32,000 nucleotides of DNA, taken from Candidatus Scalindua sediminis (lineage in GTDB: Bacteria > Planctomycetota > Brocadiia > Brocadiales > Scalinduaceae). The stretch spans positions 195,068 through 227,067 of the forward strand of contig VSDH01000001.1 of assembly GCA_008636105.1 (NCBI GenBank), in the 5' to 3' direction. Of the stretch, positions 3,605-30,029 are shown piece by piece. The notes under the pieces are model-generated. The model saw only the letters and a program-made list of their open reading frames with translations. It had not been told where the DNA came from and ran no database searches. The position numbers and the translations under genes are program-made. How positions within the stretch are numbered: position 1 is the first letter of the stretch; every line of letters starts with the position of its first letter.

Positions 3605-3916
3605 TCATTTCATAAGTGAATATATTCGTTTGACATCCGTCAAAGCCTTGTCTGTGGGGACGAGTGGTGTTACTTCTATATCGGTAAAGAAAGGAAATAG
3701 TGGGAGGTTTGTTACGATCTGGTCAAGCTCCTCGTTTGAATCAGCTTCAATAATGGCAGTAGCCCCTCTCCTGCCAGCTAATTTTCCACCCGCAAGGATT
3801 TTGCCTCTTTTTTGCATCCTGATAAAATATTCCCATTCCTTGACAACAAATCCAAGAAAATCCTTAACCGGGATATCAGGTAGTTTCTTTATTTCAACTT
3901 TTAATAAAAAGATCAT
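3605..3916 (-). CDS. muconolactone delta-isomerase-like protein
   Basis: 103 aa. The motif LPLFPFFTDIEVTPL resembles the MIase family motif LPLFPYMDIEVxPL, and size and ferredoxin-like layout are similar. Confidence 0.6.
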   Translation of the reverse strand: MIFLLKVEIKKLPDIPVKDFLGFVVKEWEYFIRMQKRGKILAGGKLAGRRGATAIIEADSNEELDQIVTNLPLFPFFTDIEVTPLVPTDKALTDVKRIYSLMK

Positions 3917-4053: not shown

Positions 4054-4098
4054 GATCCCGCCCCCATTCCTAGCTTACGCAAGGAAGCTATGGGGGGG
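4054..4098 (+). repeat. solitary REP-like palindromic module (degenerate GTAG foot)
   Basis: Nt 4058-4096 are identical (39/39) to the reverse complement of 8054-8092 inside MITE copy A. The foot here reads GATC instead of GTAG. Confidence 0.7.
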
Positions 4099-5887: not shown

Positions 5888-7942
5888 CTAAACCCTTAAG
5901 CCTGCTTCAAATCCTTCATGAATTGCTTCAAGTGCGGTTCTAACACTTACACAGTCACCTATTTTATATAACTCATCTATCTTTCCATCTAATCCTTTGA
6001 AAAGACTTTGATTGGATTTATATCCAGCCGCTATGACAACCGTATCCGCAAGAAGAAAATTATCTCTTTTATCTTTTTCATAGGTAATACGGATTTTCTC
6101 ATCTATATCCTTTGAATTAGATGAAGCCTTTAATTTGTTAATGTTATTAATATTTTTAAACTCTTTAACATTTACACCCGTTATACTATTAATTCCCGCA
6201 TCTTTTATTTGCTTTAAGATTATCCATCTGGTTGAGATACCAAACCTTCCTCCAATCTTGTTTTTCATTTCCAGGATAGTAATATTACGTTTACCCCGTG
6301 ACGTGAGTTCTACCAGCTCATCCCCTTTTATGACATTATTTTTTAAAAGAAAGCATGCAACATCCGGTTTCATTGCTCCCATTTTTGCAACGTGAAGGGC
6401 AATCTCACAACCTATCGTACCTCCGCCTATAATTACGACTTCCCTGCCAACTTTTACTTTATTGTCAAATACATCTTCGGCCACAACGACATTCCTTTCT
6501 TTCACACCCGGAATGCCAGGTACAATCGGAGTCCCCCCTACAGCCGCAATCACGGCATCCGGTTTTAGTTCTTTTATCGTTGCCATATCTGCTTTTTTGC
6601 ATAGCTGTATTTTTACGTTCAACTTCTTTATTTGGGTTTCTAAGAAATTGATAACATTTTCTATTTCTTCTCTTCCCGGAGGAATGTATGCATATCTTAA
6701 TTGCCCACCCAGGACATTAGTCTTCTCATATAAGTGCACTTCATGCCCTCTTAATGCAGCAACTCTCGCAGCTTCCAGACCTGCTGGTCCACCACCAATA
6801 ACCATTACCTTTTTCTTCTTTTTGGCTTTTTTAATTTTGTATTCTCTTTCTTTACCAGCTCTGACGTTATATAAGCAAGAAATAGATTTGAAGTTTAGCA
6901 GAGAATCGAAGCATCCTTGATTACAGGCAATACACCTCCTGATGTCGTCGAATTGCCTTTTCTTATACTTTTTTGGCAACTCTGGATCTGCTATTAAGGG
7001 TCTTCCTATCGATATTATATCTGACTGGCCATTATCTAAAATTTCTTCGGCTAATGCTAAATCATTTATCCTTACAGATCCGATTACGGGCACGTTTACA
7101 TTATCCTTAATCTTTTCCGATAAAAAGATATAAGACATCCTTGGGATGGCCATAAGCATTATGGGTGTGCGGCTCTCATGCCAACCGGGAGAAACATTAA
7201 ATGCATCAACACCCGCCTTTTCCAGCTCCTTTGCTATCTCAACACTCTCATCTATCTTGAGGCCATCAGCTATAAAATCGTCTCCGGACAGACGGAATAT
7301 TATTGGAAATTTCTTTCCCACTTTTTTCTTTGTTGCAATTACTATTTCTTTTGCAAAATTTATTCTATTTTTAAGACTTCCACCATATCTGTCTTTTCTC
7401 TTGTTAGTTGCCCTGGTGAGAAATTGATTGATCAGATAACCCATACCGCCGTGTATCTCTACTGCATCAAAGCCTGCCTTCTTTACCCTCACTGTTGCAT
7501 TTACAAAACCTTCTATTACCCTCTTAATCTCTGGTATAGTTAGTGCATGTGGTGCCTGCTTTATGTTAACGTGTGCTATACTTGATGCTGATACAGGCTG
7601 CATCTTTGTAAAAAAAGAAGATGCGCTCCTTCCTCCATGAAGTAATTGTGCGGCAACCTTGACATCATATTTATGGATCGTATCGGTTAATTTTTTTAGT
7701 CCCGGTATAAACTCATCCTTATCCAGGCCGATTATGCTCTTCCATACTTTGCCGGCCATTTCAGGATAGCATCCACCAACCACAATCAATCCTACTCCGC
7801 CACGAGCCCTTTCTATATAGAAATCAATAAAACGCTCGTTTATAAAACCGTCTGACGCAAAACCGAGGTCCATGGCCGACATGGCAAGCCGGTTCTTAAC
7901 TTCTATATTACCTATTTTTATTGGTTCATATAGTTTACTCAT
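5888..7942 (-). CDS. 2,4-dienoyl-CoA reductase-like flavoprotein (OYE TIM barrel + 4Fe-4S + FAD/NAD(P) domain)
   Basis: 684 aa. It has an N-terminal NADH:flavin oxidoreductase pattern, a Cys cluster CIACNQGC...SC, and then the Rossmann motif VMVIGGGPAGLEAA. This matches the architecture and length of FadH. Confidence 0.9.
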   Translation of the reverse strand: MSKLYEPIKIGNIEVKNRLAMSAMDLGFASDGFINERFIDFYIERARGGVGLIVVGGCYPEMAGKVWKSIIGLDKDEFIPGLKKLTDTIHKYDVKVAAQLLHGGRSASSFFTKMQPVSASSIAHVNIKQAPHALTIPEIKRVIEGFVNATVRVKKAGFDAVEIHGGMGYLINQFLTRATNKRKDRYGGSLKNRINFAKEIVIATKKKVGKKFPIIFRLSGDDFIADGLKIDESVEIAKELEKAGVDAFNVSPGWHESRTPIMLMAIPRMSYIFLSEKIKDNVNVPVIGSVRINDLALAEEILDNGQSDIISIGRPLIADPELPKKYKKRQFDDIRRCIACNQGCFDSLLNFKSISCLYNVRAGKEREYKIKKAKKKKKVMVIGGGPAGLEAARVAALRGHEVHLYEKTNVLGGQLRYAYIPPGREEIENVINFLETQIKKLNVKIQLCKKADMATIKELKPDAVIAAVGGTPIVPGIPGVKERNVVVAEDVFDNKVKVGREVVIIGGGTIGCEIALHVAKMGAMKPDVACFLLKNNVIKGDELVELTSRGKRNITILEMKNKIGGRFGISTRWIILKQIKDAGINSITGVNVKEFKNINNINKLKASSNSKDIDEKIRITYEKDKRDNFLLADTVVIAAGYKSNQSLFKGLDGKIDELYKIGDCVSVRTALEAIHEGFEAGLRV

Positions 7943-7954
7943 ATTTTTTAACAG

Positions 7955-8115
7955 CTAAATTGAGCGATTTTATATTTCATGTTACTGTAGCCGCAGGCTT
8001 TAGCCTGCGTTTCTCATCATCTGATGGGTATAAGAAATTTCACGTAAGTTACGCCCCCATAGCTTCCTTGCGTAAGCTAGGAATGGGGGCGGCTACACAA
8101 ATCGCTCAATTTAGG
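7955..8115 (+). mobile_element. MITE-like element, copy A (161 bp)
   Basis: Perfect 16-bp TIRs: CTAAATTGAGCGATTT (7955-7970) and AAATCGCTCAATTTAG (8099-8114). Identical 6-mers TAACAG flank it at 7949-7954 and 8116-8121. Inside are GTAG-REP hairpins at 7987-8009 (+) and 8052-8096 (-). It starts 13 bp upstream of the FadH-like start codon. Confidence 0.85.
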
Positions 8116-8301
8116 TAACAGCCATTATGTCACGTTAGTAATACCCTGAAAGCATGAAAATGCGTCAATGTCTATAGATTTCCGATCCCGACTGAGTCGG
8201 GTCTTGGAGTAGCTTCAAGGGGCGCCTCGGGCGACAAGTCGGAAATGACATTATTGGCTCTGGATAGCCTACATTTCGTTTTTGCAATTCCCGCTCTCTC
8301 T

Positions 8302-8325
8302 GTCATTCCTGCGAAGGCAGGAATC
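8302..8325. repeat. GTCATTC...GAATC hairpin
   Basis: GTCATTCCTGCGAAGGCAGGAATC has an 8-bp stem ATTCCTGC/GCAGGAAT with a GAAG loop. It lies inside the hairpin-rich spacer 8122-8390. Confidence 0.6.
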
Positions 8326-8390
8326 TATTCATTTAGCTCATTCCCTCCCCCGTCATGCTTTTTGGCGGACATAAGCGGGTATCTGTTTTG

Positions 8391-9614: not shown

Positions 9615-9821
9615 TTTAAAATGCTTTTACAACACCCACCAAACTATCCATTGGGCAGGCCCGCCTGCCATTTGTCGGGCAGGGAGGACACGGGGGAAAA
9701 TATTCTCATGACCACCAAAGCGATTCCGACAGACATTTTCTTTGTGACTTGTGGTCATGAATGTTTCATTATCAAAACCTAATGTAAATTACGCTCCATG
9801 TGTACGCTCATAATCACCATA

Positions 9822-10375
9822 GTAGCCGTCCGCCTAGGCGGACGTTTATTCAAACAATTGCACTTAAGATATCTTCTAAATCACATCCAATTGAACCCTT
9901 GAAACGGTACTCCTGCCAATGAGAAACAAGACCTTTCCTTACAGGGTTATCCAGTATATATCTGACTTGTGTTGGTAAATCTTCATTCTTTTTTATTATA
10001 TGGTCATAAAAGTCTTTCTGCCACCTGACACCTATTCTGTTTCTTGACATCCAGAAACCAGTCTTTTGTTTATATCCTGTGACTATTTTTAGTAAATCTA
10101 CATCTTCATGAGTACCTGTTATTATCATGTGCTGGTGGTCGGGCATGAAACAATATACAGGGATTATACATTTATTTTTTTTGGCAACGTTTTTAAGAAT
10201 ATTCGTAAAAATATTTATGACTTCTGTATCCGAAAAGAGACATACCTTATCTTTTATACACATAGTTAAGTAAACAGATACCTCTCCTATGTAAAATTCC
10301 CTTGGCAATCTGTGCTGCTTTTCTTTTATTTTTGTATTCATAGACTTTTTTTCGCAGGCTGAAGCCTGCGACTAC
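9822..10375 (-). mobile_element. RAYT unit: Y1 transposase gene flanked by inverted GTAG-REP hairpins
   Basis: Left REP: GTAGCCGTCCGCCTAGGCGGACG (9822-9844, +). Right REP: CGCAGGCTGAAGCCTGCGACTAC (10353-10375), the reverse complement of GTAGTCGCAGGCTTCAGCCTGCG. The feet point outward and the hairpins lie next to the gene. Confidence 0.75.
9850..10341 (-). CDS. IS200/IS605-type Y1 (HUH) transposase, REP-associated tyrosine transposase-like
   Basis: 163 aa with the HUH-type motif PDHQHMII and the C-terminal catalytic-Tyr block VRYILDNPVRKGLV. Size is typical of RAYTs. Confidence 0.82.
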   Translation of the reverse strand: MNTKIKEKQHRLPREFYIGEVSVYLTMCIKDKVCLFSDTEVINIFTNILKNVAKKNKCIIPVYCFMPDHQHMIITGTHEDVDLLKIVTGYKQKTGFWMSRNRIGVRWQKDFYDHIIKKNEDLPTQVRYILDNPVRKGLVSHWQEYRFKGSIGCDLEDILSAIV

Positions 10376-10387
10376 TATACACGGACA

Positions 10388-11596
10388 CTATAGCTTACTG
10401 AAAATATTTGTAACATTATTTCCACCAAAGGCAAATGAATTATTCAATACGCAATTAACTTCTAACTCACGTCCTTCATTTGGAACGTAATCCAAATCAC
10501 ACTCAGGGTCTGGAGTTTCATAGTGTATGGTGGGTGGAACTGCATTATTTTTAATCGCCAGGCAGCTCACAACAGATTCTATCGCACTTGCAGCGCCCAT
10601 TGTATGGCCGATCATAGATTTTATAGAACTAACAGGAATCTCTTTTGCACGCTCCTTAAAGACTGATTTTATGGCTAACGTTTCCATCCTGTCATTTAAG
10701 GGTGTTCCGGTACCATGTGCATTAATGTAGTCAATATCCTTGTAAGAAATCTTAGAAGCAGAAAGAGCATCTAACATAGCCTTTATTGCTCCGGCTCCCT
10801 CAGGATGTGGAGCCGTCATATGATGTCCGTCACAACTCATTCCGTAACCTTTCAATTCAGCATAAATATTAGCATTTCTCTTTGATGCAAAATCAAACGA
10901 CTCCATCACCATTATTCCTGCTCCTTCTCCAATTACGAGTCCCTTTCTATTTTTGTCAAAAGGCTGACATCTCTCAGGAGCTAAAGCCTTTAAATTGTGA
11001 AAATGTGTAAACTCAGTTTGTGGTATAAGTTCGCCTCCACCTACAAGCATCACATCAACCTTCCCTTCTGATAAAAGATCAAGGGCCCATGCAATAGCAT
11101 GGTTACCCGAAGAACATGCATTTAACGATACCATGTTTGGCCCTTCAAACCCAAAATCTTCAGAAAGCAAAGTTGTTATGGATGATGGTGGGTATGTTAA
11201 GGCAACGCCCATGTCGAATCCATTTGCTTTGTCCTCAGGTGCATTGCGTAGCAGGTATTCAAAGGGGGGTAGTTCACCAGCAAGAGTTCCAATTGCAATC
11301 CCAAACCTTTCACTATCATACCTGGTAATATCATTTAAACCACTATCTTCTAAAGCTTCCTTCGCAGCAGAATAGGTATATTTATGTATTGTGTTTGCTG
11401 TGGTCTCATTTTCAAAAGTAGTGTCAATTTTAAAATCCTTGACCTCACATACACGGTGTACCCTATACTTTGAGGTATCAAAGGATTTTATCTCTGCCGT
11501 ACCATCCTTACCATTAACGAGCGCATCCCATGCATTCTTAACACCAATACCATTGGCTATTACTAATCCCAAACCCGTAATAACAACTCTTGGCAT
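10388..11596 (-). CDS. fabF: beta-ketoacyl-ACP synthase II-type (active-site complete)
   Basis: NACSSGNHAIA (Cys), INAHGTGTPLND (His), SIKSMIGHTMGAASA (Lys/His), NNSFAFGGNN. I prefer the ATG at 11596 (MPRVVITGLGLV, preceded by AAAGGA) over the track's GTG at 11662, which adds 22 atypical residues. Confidence 0.9.
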   Translation of the reverse strand: MPRVVITGLGLVIANGIGVKNAWDALVNGKDGTAEIKSFDTSKYRVHRVCEVKDFKIDTTFENETTANTIHKYTYSAAKEALEDSGLNDITRYDSERFGIAIGTLAGELPPFEYLLRNAPEDKANGFDMGVALTYPPSSITTLLSEDFGFEGPNMVSLNACSSGNHAIAWALDLLSEGKVDVMLVGGGELIPQTEFTHFHNLKALAPERCQPFDKNRKGLVIGEGAGIMVMESFDFASKRNANIYAELKGYGMSCDGHHMTAPHPEGAGAIKAMLDALSASKISYKDIDYINAHGTGTPLNDRMETLAIKSVFKERAKEIPVSSIKSMIGHTMGAASAIESVVSCLAIKNNAVPPTIHYETPDPECDLDYVPNEGRELEVNCVLNNSFAFGGNNVTNIFSKL

Positions 11597-17119: not shown

Positions 17120-17667
17120 GTGTTAGGTAATTCATTAAAATAGAACCACTTAAACCAGCCAGATTTCTTACTTTTTCAATTGCCAGCACTTAATTATAGG
17201 GATTCGTCTTATACCTGAAAACAAAGAGCAAATTTTTTGTCTAATAGGGGCAAAATATAGAATTTTTGAGACATGTAAACCAAATTACCTTTGAAGTTGT
17301 AAGGCACCGTAATTACAGGACCTAGCCCTCGGGTAGACAAAACTTAAAAAAGTGCCATAAGATACTTTAATACCGTAGTTAACAATTTCTATCATTAAAC
17401 TCTCCGAGATCACCCCTTTTTGTACTAGCAACTCAAAATAACACTAACAATCCTAAACGATCTAGGTGGTAATACCATAGTTTGTTTCATTTTTTAAACT
17501 TGTAATGTCGAAGGTTTTATGAAAAAATAAATAGGGATGCAAGGTATAAATGATCGAATTTGGCGCCTTTTACTCACTTTATACCTGTATTACTGCGCAA
17601 GAGATATAACTTCACACGGTGGAACTCCCCAGATTTAGCTGCACAAGCAGTAGCCAAGGAGAAAAAT

Positions 17668-20403
17668 ATGCAAACCGATGATAAAGATGATGATATAAAA
17701 CATCAGAATTCTTACAAAGACAAAATCGAGGAAAAGTTAGAGAAGGTAAAGCTTAGGTATAATCTTTTCAGATGTGAAAATACATATCTAACTGTTTTTA
17801 CGATTGGACTGGCAATAGCTCTAATCACCATTATTGTCCAGAAATTCGTCGATATACCACCCTATACATATATTATCCTTATTTCCTTATTCTCAATTTA
17901 CTTCTTCCTGAATCTGGCAATAACAATTAAGAAATGGATTGGGAAGTCTGAGGCTGCAAAGATATTAGATGAGAAAATGCATTTTAAGGAAAGACTTGTC
18001 ACCGGCCTAGAATACGCCGAGCAGACAGAAAAGAATAAGTTCTTTGATATGCTTGTAGATGATATTACAAGTAAGCTTGACGGTAAAAGCATAAAGAATA
18101 CCCTCCCTCATAAGTTTCCAAAAGCAACAAAGTTTTTTATACCTGTATCCATACTACTTTTAATTCTTTTGCTTTTCCCTTATCTTTATCCTGAAAAGTT
18201 AGAGCAAATAATCACCGATATACAAGAATCAATTGTCGAGAAACCTGGTTTGCTAAATAATACTCTTGAAAAACCTGAAACCAAAGAGGCAGAAGACATT
18301 GTCGCTGAAAAAAAGGATGAAGAAAAATCAAAAGAACCTCAGGAGGAACAAAAAGACAAAAAACTGGCAGGAACAGAGACTGATAAAACTCAAAAAGAAC
18401 AACAGGCGCAAAAAACAACCAGTCCATTACAAAATGAAATCTCGAAGTTACTAAGTAAAATTAACTCAACATTTGATAAGCTTGAAAACAAGTCGAAAAC
18501 AGAAGACAAAGCAGAAGGTGGAAAATCTAAACTTTCTGATCTGAAAGCAGGAGAAAGCCAGAAGAAGGAAGATGAACCAAAACAGATAGCTAAAACAGAA
18601 AAAGAACAGTTAGAAGGCAAAGAAAAAGAGCCTACAAAAACTGCGGATGCATCTGATTCTGATGAAAAACCTCCTGAACAAGAACAAGCAAAGGATCAAA
18701 AGAGAAAACAAAGGCCCAAGATTCCCGAATCGAAACTATTGCAAAAGCTCGCAAAACTCCTCAAGTCTCAAAAAGACATGGAGAATTTCCCTCAGCCAAG
18801 TATTCCTTTGGGTGGAATGGATAAAGATCAGGCTGATTCATTAAAGGACAAATCAAGCCAGAGCAAACAATCAGCGTCTTCTGCTTCAAAAGATTCTTCC
18901 AGCTCACCTCAGCAAGAATTACCACAAGAAGAATTAAGTAAGGGAACTTCTCAACCTGACAAATCTGAAACTAAACCTTCTGGTTCGGGTGATAAAAATA
19001 TGCCAGAAACCCAACAACAAGAAACTAATGCAGGCACTGAAGACAAAGTTACAAAAAAACAAGGAGATGTAAAAAAGAGCGACAAAGCTTCCTCTCAAGT
19101 GCCTGAAGGAGCAGATACTCCAGCGAAAGGGCAAAAGGGATCCAGCGATGATCTTAAAGATAAATTAGCACAGGCAGACAAAAAAACAGGCGGAACAGGT
19201 TCGCAGACAACCCCTTCACCTTCTGCCAGAGAAGATACGGAACTACCACAAGAACAACAAATGAAAGACACCCCTGATACGGAGAAATTAGATAGCAAGT
19301 CAACGGGTGGTACTGAACAAGCAAAACAAGAAGGCGGTGGTGAACAAGGAGAATCTCAAGGTGCGGGTGGTACTAATGTTGCATCCGGTAAAGGTAAGGA
19401 GTCGGGATCAGGGGCGGAACAAAAAGGTGCAGGTAAGGAAGCAGGCGAAGGGCAGAAAGTAGCGGGTAAGGAACCAGGTGAAGGACAGAAAGGTACAGGC
19501 AAGGGATCAGGTACAGAACAGAAGGGTGCGGGTACTGAACCAGGTGAAGGGCAGAAAGTAGCGGGCAAGGAATCAGGTGCAGAACAGAAGGGTGCGGGTA
19601 AGGAAGCAGGCGAAGGGCAGAAAGTAGCTGGCAAGGAATCAGGAGAGGGACAGAAAGGTGCTGGCGAGAAATCAGGTACAGAACAGAAGGGTGCGGGTAA
19701 GGAAGCAGGTGAAGGGCAGAAAGTAGCGGGTAAGGAAGCAGGTGAAGGACAGAAGGGTGCGGGTACTGAACCAGGTGAAGGACAGAAAGTAGCGAGTAGG
19801 GGATCGGGTAGCCCTATAGGCTCGCCGCAAAGGCAAACGATGAATAATCAAGGAATGACTGGAGGTAGTAAGAGTAACGCACAAAGTAGTGCCGACTTGA
19901 AAAATAAAATCGCTAGTCAAATGGAAGATCTATTCAGGCAGATTTCGAATTTAGAAAAGAAAATGGGATTAGATGTTAGTGATAACATGAAAATGGAAAA
20001 AGGGTTGAATGATATAAGTAAACTAAAGCAAGAGGGCATTGATAAAGAAAAGCAAAGGGAATCAAATGAGTTAAGGAGAGATATTAGTGAGATTGCTGCA
20101 ATACCTGGAAGCGAACCAGGAAAGAAATTATACTCTTCTGAACCAGAAAAGATTGAAACACCTGAAAGTGCTGAAAAGTTTAAATTGAAATTAGAGGGAA
20201 TTAAAGACGAATCTGGAGCAAAAAGGGAAACCGTATCTACTGGCAAAGGAGAAGCTACGACAAAAAGAAGACTCCCAACAGTAGGTTACGACGATACTGT
20301 GGAACTAAGTAAGCAACAAGCAGAAGAAGACGCAATAAAAAAGACTTCAATACCATTAGAGTATGAGGAAATTATTAAGAAGATACATTCTGAAAAGGAG
20401 TAG
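17668..20403 (+). CDS. membrane-anchored low-complexity (E/K/Q/S/G-rich) protein, first gene of the MoxR operon
   Basis: I prefer the ATG at 17668, with AAGGAG 6 nt upstream, over the track's TTG at 17560. There are hydrophobic segments near the N-terminus (LTVFTIGLAIALITIIV, IILISLFSIYFFLNLAI, FFIPVSILLLILLLFPYL) and about 700 aa of low complexity, including 11-aa tandem repeats. The stop lies 3 nt before the MoxR start. Confidence 0.8.
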   Translation: MQTDDKDDDIKHQNSYKDKIEEKLEKVKLRYNLFRCENTYLTVFTIGLAIALITIIVQKFVDIPPYTYIILISLFSIYFFLNLAITIKKWIGKSEAAKILDEKMHFKERLVTGLEYAEQTEKNKFFDMLVDDITSKLDGKSIKNTLPHKFPKATKFFIPVSILLLILLLFPYLYPEKLEQIITDIQESIVEKPGLLNNTLEKPETKEAEDIVAEKKDEEKSKEPQEEQKDKKLAGTETDKTQKEQQAQKTTSPLQNEISKLLSKINSTFDKLENKSKTEDKAEGGKSKLSDLKAGESQKKEDEPKQIAKTEKEQLEGKEKEPTKTADASDSDEKPPEQEQAKDQKRKQRPKIPESKLLQKLAKLLKSQKDMENFPQPSIPLGGMDKDQADSLKDKSSQSKQSASSASKDSSSSPQQELPQEELSKGTSQPDKSETKPSGSGDKNMPETQQQETNAGTEDKVTKKQGDVKKSDKASSQVPEGADTPAKGQKGSSDDLKDKLAQADKKTGGTGSQTTPSPSAREDTELPQEQQMKDTPDTEKLDSKSTGGTEQAKQEGGGEQGESQGAGGTNVASGKGKESGSGAEQKGAGKEAGEGQKVAGKEPGEGQKGTGKGSGTEQKGAGTEPGEGQKVAGKESGAEQKGAGKEAGEGQKVAGKESGEGQKGAGEKSGTEQKGAGKEAGEGQKVAGKEAGEGQKGAGTEPGEGQKVASRGSGSPIGSPQRQTMNNQGMTGGSKSNAQSSADLKNKIASQMEDLFRQISNLEKKMGLDVSDNMKMEKGLNDISKLKQEGIDKEKQRESNELRRDISEIAAIPGSEPGKKLYSSEPEKIETPESAEKFKLKLEGIKDESGAKRETVSTGKGEATTKRRLPTVGYDDTVELSKQQAEEDAIKKTSIPLEYEEIIKKIHSEKE
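19387..19788 (+). repeat. in-frame 33-bp tandem repeat array (about 12 units)
   Basis: There are 11 exact-length 33-bp units at 19426-19788 encoding GAGKEAGEGQK / VAGKE(P/S/A)GEGQK / G(T/A)G..SGTEQK variants. One degenerate unit lies upstream, and a decayed unit lies downstream at 19789-19815. Confidence 0.9.
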
Positions 20404-29221: not shown

Positions 29222-29247
29222 TTAAGATCTTTTAAATTATATAACAT

Positions 29248-29375
29248 CTAAATTGAGAGATTTTATATTATATGCCATTGTAGCCGCTGGCTTTAGCCTG
29301 CGTTTCTCATCATTTGATGGATCCACGTAAGTTACGCAACCTCAAGGTTGCGGCTACAAAATCGCTCAATTTAGA
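29248..29375 (+). mobile_element. MITE-like element, copy B (128 bp)
   Basis: TIRs are CTAAATTGAGAGATTT and AAATCGCTCAATTTAG(A). Identical 6-mers TAACAT flank it at 29242-29247 and 29376-29381. Internal GTAG-REPs lie at 29280-29302 (+) and 29335-29357 (-). It has a ~10-bp internal deletion relative to copy C. Confidence 0.85.
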
Positions 29376-29450
29376 TAACATTAAGGTTAAAGACTAAAAT
29401 CTCTACTTTATATCTTGTTCATTTGTTTACCACAGCAGACCAGGTCACAC

Positions 29451-29675
29451 TCAAATTCCAATAACCTGTACCTTTAAACCGCACCCATCATCAAACGTGC
29501 AGCCATAGGTGTCTCCCTTTTCTTTCTCCTCCGCACCTGTAGCAATGGTCATTTGCTCACCACAGCATTTCATATCGCAATCAACCTCACCACATACGTC
29601 AACCGCCTTTACCTTTATTGCACATCCTCCCTCAAAACTACATTCTAGGAGGTCTCCATTTTTAAGTGCTGGCAT
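29451..29675 (-). CDS. small cysteine-rich protein, desulforedoxin-like motif
   Basis: 74 aa with AGGAG 7 nt upstream of the ATG and 10 Cys. There is an internal repeat: GDLLECSFEGGCAIKVKAV and GDTYGCTFDDGCGLKVQVI. The central KCCGEQM recalls the desulforedoxin VCCGEDM. Confidence 0.68.
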   Translation of the reverse strand: MPALKNGDLLECSFEGGCAIKVKAVDVCGEVDCDMKCCGEQMTIATGAEEKEKGDTYGCTFDDGCGLKVQVIGI

Positions 29676-29856
29676 TTTATTACTCCTTTCTAAGTATTAC
29701 CGGCCTAAATTATCTTTTTATAATGACTGCTCAATATCTTATGGAAAACAGATTCACTCGCAAAGCTGCAGGGACGCTAAACAAAAATATTTGATGCCAA
29801 ACCTTTGTAAGCTTTACATCTTTGTAAGAATTCGTATTTTATTGAATATCTATTAC

Positions 29857-29995
29857 CTAAATTGAGCGATTTTATACCTTATATTATAGTAGCCGCAGGC
29901 TTTAGCCTGCGTTTCTCATCATCTAATGGGTATATGATAATCTCACGTAAGTTACGCAACCTGAAGGTTGCGGCTACACAAATCGTCAATTTAGG
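29857..29995 (+). mobile_element. MITE-like element, copy C (139 bp)
   Basis: TIRs are CTAAATTGAGCGATTT and AAATCG-TCAATTTAGG (one base missing). Identical 6-mers TATTAC flank it at 29851-29856 and 29996-30001. Internal GTAG-REPs lie at 29889-29911 (+) and 29955-29977 (-). Confidence 0.85.
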
Positions 29996-30029
29996 TATTA
30001 CTATATTATTTATATAATATCATAATTGT

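Follow-up and report, generated by a model that had tools for sequence, protein, structure and literature searches.

The window analysed here, a 32,000-nucleotide stretch of a Candidatus Scalindua sediminis contig, holds three copies of a short repeat. Copy A, counted with its terminal bases (G...G), occupies positions 7954–8115 on the forward strand and is bordered by the duplication TAACA at 7949–7953 and 8116–8120. Copy B, which has T...A termini and the canonical length of 127+2 nt, lies at 29247–29375 (forward strand) between TAACA at 29242–29246 and TAACA at 29376–29380, and copy C, with C...G termini, at 29856–29995 (forward strand) between TATTA at 29851–29855 and TATTA at 29996–30000. 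All three repeats had been recognised, and correctly placed, in a first-pass annotation made from the letters of the window, which had also described copy A as the immediate 5′ region of a FadH-like gene; the end of the element is indeed 11 nt from the ATG of that gene, whose protein has no exact match on record. The copies are non-coding, as every ORF that overlaps them is 65 aa or shorter. Between the FadH-like gene and a ketoacyl-synthase gene, positions 7943–8390 of the window are 448 bp of accumulated repeats, copy A among them, and the C-terminus of the synthase differs from that encoded at locus L109, where the ketoacyl-synthase stop overlaps the FadH-like start (L109 2215–2270). Copies B and C have between them, on the minus strand, an ORF of 74 aa that is rich in cysteine and without a Pfam match (29451–29675).

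Copies A, B and C can be aligned end to end. As described in the first-pass annotation, they have in common the termini CTAAATTGAGCGATTT and AAATCGCTCAATTTAG, a left hairpin, GTAGCCGCAGGCTTTAGCCTGCG, and a core, TTTCTCATCAT...CACGTAAGTTACG. Five matches to the terminal 16-mer with three mismatches or fewer are found in the window, against 0.7 expected by chance, and the sixth end, the right terminal inverted repeat (TIR) of copy C, carries a 1-nt deletion. The interior of all the copies is an inverted pair, GTAGCC-GCAGGCTTTAGCCTGC-G ... C-GCAACCTCAAGGTTGC-GGCTAC, in which each unit consists of GTAG and an imperfect palindrome, that is, of the elements of a REP. The left REP of copy A lies at 7987–8009 (forward strand), and its sequence is also found beside RAYT (REP-associated tyrosine transposase) genes in L104–L110, L239 and L240. 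A right hairpin ending in CGGCTAC, also claimed earlier, is present in each copy as far as that ending goes, but the one in copy A is a different hairpin: at its right REP position (8052–8096, minus strand) the CG...CGGCTAC frame is retained and the stem-loop is a 39-nt hairpin, CCCCCATAGC...GGGGG. Copy A belongs to a 139-nt subtype, made larger by this replacement hairpin.

The true ends of the element were established from 87 complete copies from other genomes, which we obtained by TIR pairing among the matches listed in the genome scan given below. Positions −6 to −2 on the left match positions +2 to +6 on the right in 79–87% of these copies, while the next position outward or inward matches in 18–24%, which is the chance level. 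Perfect flanking 5-mers surround 58 of the 87 copies, compared with 2.9 under shuffled pairing. The base abutting CTAAATT is C in 64/87 copies and its partner at the opposite end is G in 64/87; the TIR is therefore 17 nt long, and the element reads CCTAAATTGAGCGATTT...AAATCGCTCAATTTAGG, with a 5-bp duplication of a target whose consensus is T-N-N-N-A (also written T-W-N-W-A). In the window, the right ...TTTAG does not abut the right-hand repeat directly: one additional base intervenes, G in copy A, A in copy B and G in copy C, on which the first-pass annotation is silent. Two figures of the first-pass annotation change as a result: the TIR, given there as 16 bp, is 17 nt (CCTAAATTGAGCGATTT) on the evidence of the 87 copies, and, although TAACAG, TAACAT and TATTAC do stand on both sides of their respective copies, a 6-bp duplication is rejected by the position-wise statistics in favour of 5 bp, the sixth matching base in the window being a coincidence because neighbouring positions match at chance level. 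We also considered a 3-bp duplication combined with a longer TIR (ACC...GGT). At these outer positions, however, bases that deviate from the consensus T or A are the same on both sides (A/A, C/C, T/T four times), so that the outer bases are duplicated and do not belong to the TIR, and this arrangement was discarded. An attC-like or other site-specific recombination site was set aside as well, since the flanks, judged from the sequences, are repeats in direct orientation and of variable sequence, not core sites in inverted orientation.

We scanned one genome per species with the pattern TIR-N(0-30)-GTAGCC, which matched more than 103 genomic stretches. Among the matches listed, most are in Candidatus Scalindua, Scalinduaceae and Brocadiaceae MAGs, and the remaining ones in Desulfobacterales, Syntrophorhabdus, Syntrophaceae, Thermodesulfobacteriota and Nitrospirota MAGs. 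The family is thus abundant in Candidatus Scalindua and present in Desulfobacterota, Syntrophia-type and Nitrospirota MAGs. Many of the listed matches are at contig ends, as expected because a repeat of this kind breaks assemblies. A length of 127 nt between the 16-mers is the commonest (127+2 nt with the terminal bases), and the 87 complete copies divide into 45 in one orientation and 42 in the other.

Orthologous sites with and without the element were found in related genomes. In S. rubra (L041) an element has TTAAA on both sides, and the orthologous site in Scalindua OFTM1 (L038, 82% identity) has a single TTATA and no element, the gap corresponding to the element plus 5 bp. Copy A is common to the window and to L054 (FS_1_bin.16), at the same site and with the same flanks in a region of ~88% identity over 8 kb, and therefore predates the split of these two genomes. 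It is absent from the orthologous sites in L104 and L109; the latter has a single TGTCA where the window, read on the reverse strand, has TGTTA-element-TGTTA. These empty sites demonstrate insertion, and they confirm the earlier view of the repeat as a MITE of the transposition type, with TIRs and with genuine target-site duplications. In FS_1_bin.16, six sites (L010, L016, L033, L051, L068 and L069), each with a different 5-bp duplication, hold a 146-bp subvariant in which an identical hairpin is nested in the loop of the left REP. The element was thus amplified again after having been modified, and the different duplications indicate that it did so recently in this genome.

The insertion data also bear on whether the repeats could be structured RNAs (an sRNA, a terminator or an mRNA-stabilising element) conserved for an RNA function and not for mobility. 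The consensus of 21 copies does form nested stems, 93.8% of the cells being paired, and the left hairpin followed by TTTCTC gives a terminator-like pattern, a promoter and terminator scan of copy A being uninformative. Nevertheless, the window has no Rfam match at gathering score, covariation is weak, double changes appearing only as whole-hairpin swaps in 2/21 sequences, and the central stems decay, with the weakest pair kept in 9/21 and 13/21. Furthermore, the copies lie in both orientations (45 vs 42), and their duplications and empty sites reflect insertion and not vertical conservation. Selection for an RNA function is, on this evidence, a highly improbable account of the family.

The parentage of the ends was revealed by a scan of metagenome contigs for the 17-mer, with G at the canonical GTAG positions excluded. 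An identical 17-mer is found at both ends of elements of 1.7–1.8 kb (L131, L194, L198 and L233–L238), and in L131, L194 and L235–L238 the ends match CCTAAATTGAGCGATTT without a mismatch. The ORFs of these long elements (482 and 487 aa) score 241 and 256 bits on the NCBIfam model NF033539, IS1380 family transposase (cut-off 180), and match Pfam DDE_Tnp_1_4 as well; additional IS copies, recovered via protein homologues, bear the same ends. An autonomous element with the same TIRs and a DDE transposase gene, whose existence the first-pass annotation had raised, is therefore available, on metagenome contigs, in the form of 1.7–1.8 kb IS1380-family elements. The contigs that carry the IS are short metagenome contigs, and duplications round the full-length copies are clear in L131 (TTTTT, of low complexity) and L198 (4/5) only, the flanks in the remaining contigs appearing chimeric. 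The same 17-mer also delimits several MITE families, unrelated and REP-less, whose lengths include 159, 208 and 233 bp; these have the same 5-bp T..A duplications, perfect in 23/45. IS1380 elements have CC termini and AT-rich duplications of 4–5 bp, and the IR of ISEcp1 begins CCTAGATT; the MITE resembles the family in its CC termini and its 5-bp AT-rich duplications, and its 17-nt ends are identical to those of the NF033539-encoding elements. Among the known systems nearest to it are thus the IS1380 family, with ISEcp1 and ISPme1 as examples, and MITEs derived from DDE insertion sequences.

Similarity between the MITE and the IS is confined to the 17–18 nt of the TIR. The subterminal sequences are unrelated, so that an origin of the MITE by internal deletion of the IS is not supported, and the element is a TIR-only MITE with a foreign interior. 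It differs from IS1380 elements in having no transposase gene, the TIR alone being common to both, and in an interior that is the REPIN of a different, HUH-type transposase system. An IS1380 copy with these ends was found neither in the window nor in the ~740 kb of Scalindua and related MAG loci round the MITEs, in a class of assemblies, MAGs, that often lose IS copies, and an all-against-all BLASTP gave no multi-copy transposase ORFs in the MAG loci. The enzyme would nonetheless presumably be present in the host genome. Viral contigs matched the 17-mer twice only, and the one match inspected is an unrelated terminator hairpin.

The source of the interior lies in the window itself, 1.7 kb from copy A, in a RAYT gene overlooked in the first-pass annotation. 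This gene (9850–10341, minus strand) encodes a protein of 163 aa that matches Pfam PF01797 (E = 1e-9) and scores 88.8 bits on the NCBIfam RAYT equivalog NF047646 (cut-off 80), and it has both the HUH motif (HQH) and the Tyr motif (YILDNPVRKGLV). Five nucleotides beyond its stop codon lies the REP GTAGCCGTCCGCCTAGGCGGACG (9822–9844, forward strand), which is the left-hairpin variant of the MITE copies in L039 and L055, and 11 nt upstream of its ATG is a REP that reads GTAGTCGCAGGCTTCAGCCTGCG on the minus strand (10353–10375). These two GTAGCCG hairpins are inverted with respect to each other, and both are variants present within MITE copies. RAYT orthologues of 81–89% identity in other Scalindua assemblies occupy the same syntenic slot (KS-RAYT-KS-FadH-like) and have the same REPs and no TIR; orthologues of 59–66% identity in Desulfobaccales, Nitrospirae and a third genome likewise have the same REP, and those of Desulfobaccales and Nitrospirae no TIR. 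In the Nitrospirae locus (L240) we found TIR-less doublets of GCAACCT..AGGTTGC and GCAGGCT..AGCCTGC, which are the two hairpins of the MITE interior. The reading of the interior as an inverted pair of GTAG-type REPs is therefore borne out, by a RAYT gene with the same REPs and by TIR-less doublets. On the other hand, the earlier conclusion that the element could not be assigned to a known family no longer stands: its ends are exactly those of IS1380 insertion sequences and its REPs are those that flank the RAYT gene.

Two other candidates were examined. An autonomous element of the form TIR-REP-RAYT-REP-TIR was rejected, since eight RAYT loci have REPs and no TIR, and a RAYT-like protein in L009 was set aside because it is another protein of the Y1 type, 319 aa long, with no GTAGCC on its flanks. 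In L104–L110 the RAYT stands at the same KS-RAYT-KS-FadH position as in the window. The block 9617–10394, which contains the RAYT, its two REPs and other small hairpins, has no counterpart between the orthologous genes of L054 (FS_1_bin.16), and judging from the sequences it looks as if a RAYT that is syntenic as a rule had been lost, or gained, in a lineage-specific manner.

With both systems in the same window, the RAYT, a Y1 HUH enzyme, might itself move the whole element, TIRs included, as the REPIN of its clade and insert it with a 5-bp duplication. RAYT and MITE do occur together, in the window and in the same set of phyla, and the REP hairpins are kept in every subfamily. Also, most GTAGCCG hairpins of the Scalindua loci lie within MITEs (103 TIR-adjacent vs ~10 TIR-less), a count that is biased because the scan demanded GTAGCC beside a TIR. 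Transposition of the IS200/IS605 Y1 type, however, is not known to make a duplication, the REPs of the eight RAYT loci are TIR-less, and the same TIR and 5-bp duplication are found in REP-less MITEs and in the elements that encode an IS1380 DDE transposase. On these grounds we consider it very unlikely that the RAYT moved the whole unit.

The three copies are members of a non-autonomous MITE of ~129 bp that is very probably moved in trans by an IS1380 transposase and carries a REPIN as a passenger. The DDE transposase most likely binds both 17-nt ends, and would insert the element at T-N-N-N-A sites by a 5-bp staggered cut, giving rise to the 5-bp duplication. The interior is not derived from an IS but is a REPIN (GCAGGCT..AGCCTGC plus GCAACCT..AGGTTGC) of the kind that flanks the host RAYT gene. 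Such a REP doublet was probably captured once between two IS ends and afterwards spread as the passenger of the MITE, and the capture may reflect a tendency of IS1380 to mobilise adjacent DNA: members of this family, which the MITE would resemble in this respect, are reported to take up foreign DNA that lies next to them when IR-like sequences are misrecognised (PMC9330008). The orientation of the interior agrees with a single capture. Measured against the asymmetric frame, in which a 16-nt spacer is present on one side only, the interior has the canonical orientation in 51 copies, and the sole truly flipped interior, with a REP doublet that runs opposite to the frame of TIR and spacer, is that of L077 (1254–1381). 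The chimera therefore had a single origin, or few origins, and then spread as a unit. What the first-pass annotation had called a hybrid is one in substance, although it is the fusion of two known systems and not a new transposition mechanism. One finding counts against the passenger model: every subfamily and every phylum has kept both REP hairpins, a conservation stronger than would be expected of an inert passenger. That the doublet belongs to a RAYT system explains this conservation across phyla.

The hairpins are also exchanged. The right stem-loop of copy A is the 39-nt hairpin CCCCCATAGCTTCCTTGCGTAAGCTAGGAATGGGGG, while its orthologue in L054 has the canonical CGCAACCTGAAGGTTGCG (3640–3665), and essentially nothing but this precise replacement distinguishes the two orthologous copies. 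A lone copy of the 39-nt hairpin, inverted and 100% complementary to that of copy A, lies at 4058–4096 on the minus strand of the window, and the same hairpin takes the right REP position in three MITEs (copy A, L099 and L004) that represent two subtypes and three genomes. Some variants of the left hairpin, GTCCGCC..GGCGGAC among them, are the same as the REP that flanks the RAYT, and a minimal copy of 77 bp (L031 1949–2025) contains a single, perfectly palindromic REP. Together with the flipped interior of L077, these observations are what would be seen if the MITE frame and the REPs were independently active, with REPs or REPINs repeatedly entering, leaving and being swapped by the RAYT or by gene conversion, and without any single capture. 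But the 51:1 orientation and the shared core derive most copies from one chimeric ancestor, an empty frame without REPs was not seen among the copies, and short-tract gene conversion between copies could equally give the stem-loop replacement. We therefore think it unlikely that independent traffic of REPs accounts for the family as a whole, and the hairpin exchange itself could be due either to RAYT action or to short-tract gene conversion. Beside copy A, at 8183–8243, the window has ~60 nt of GC-rich palindromic sequence in place of which L054 has a different segment of ~85 nt, with conserved flanks on both sides; this looks like a second cassette-like swap.

The reading that we prefer can be taken one step further. 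It is conceivable, although we put it forward tentatively and hold it to be rather doubtful, that the REPINs of this RAYT clade, in Scalindua and several other anaerobic lineages, are propagated mainly by the foreign IS1380 transposase, their REP doublet being enclosed in a MITE, while the RAYT still works on the embedded hairpins and thereby gives rise to the precise stem-loop replacements and the rare inversion by which orthologous copies differ. If this were true, the IS, the MITE and the RAYT/REPIN system would form a three-way dependency, and there would be an exception to the view that REPINs duplicate by RAYT alone. REPINs are usually taken to depend on a single-copy RAYT for their duplication, an assumption that underlies models of RAYT-REPIN co-evolution.

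REP and REPIN elements are reportedly tied to RAYT (TnpA_REP) genes. The interior of the MITE resembles such elements in its 5′ GTAG and GC-rich palindrome, in the pairing of two inverted units and in being extragenic; these units also stand on both sides of a single RAYT gene whose product passes the NCBIfam equivalog, and TIR-less doublets of the same two hairpins exist in a Nitrospirae genome. We know of no terminal inverted repeats beyond the REPs, and of no target duplication, in classical REPINs, whereas here IS1380 ends enclose the doublet and it has spread with 5-bp duplications. A physical association of a DDE-type element with REPs is also a feature of IS1397, ISKpn1 and ISPpu9/10, which are said to insert inside REPs; here, by contrast, the REP pair is inside the IS-type ends and has been carried to non-REP T-N-N-N-A targets. 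Finally, the SDR elements of cyanobacteria are reportedly very small nested hairpin repeats. They share with the present family short GC-rich hairpins that are nested in the loops of other repeats and vary between orthologous sites, but lineage and sequences are different, and the likeness concerns the hairpin swaps and nested hairpins, not the MITE.

Both components are thus of known kinds, and their fusion, with a REPIN amplified by a DDE transposase, appears to be undescribed: our literature search, which was incomplete, found no published description of the family, of its TIR, of MITEs in Scalindua or other anammox bacteria, or of a REPIN with target-site duplication. Here IS1380 ends enclose a REP doublet, which has multiplied by another mechanism, of the cut-and-duplicate kind, and has copies in several phyla. 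Should the RAYT still recognise the embedded REPs, the system would allow a test, provided by nature, of how REPs and RAYTs serve one another and their host. There are practical consequences as well, as these MITEs break MAG assemblies, with many matches at contig ends, and remodel gene junctions, as in the case of the gene overlap of L109 against the 448 bp of the window. They should be annotated as IS1380-type MITEs instead of unexplained repeats.

Several other repeats were noted in the course of this work. Intergenic families of short GC-rich palindromes, CCTGCCCG...CGGGCAGG and TGTCATTCCTGCGAAGGCAGGAAT, are found at 9650–9690 and 8290–8330 of the window, and palindromes of this type also in L007, L021, L028, L030, L041, L066 and L093, as well as nested in the loops of MITE hairpins. 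A solo, degenerate, REP-like GTAG hairpin, GTAGCGGATGGCTTTAGCCTTCC, lies at 2132–2157 on the forward strand, without TIR and outside any MITE, and solo GTAG hairpins that resemble it are present in L078 and L100. A Desulfobacterales contig (L053) has at ~7740–7850 a tandem array of the REP head, GGTAGCCGCAACCTG. An unrelated repeat of the window consists of at least 11 tandem units of 33 nt at 19338–19832, inside a 947-aa ORF (17560–20403) with no Pfam match, in which it would encode an 11-residue protein repeat.
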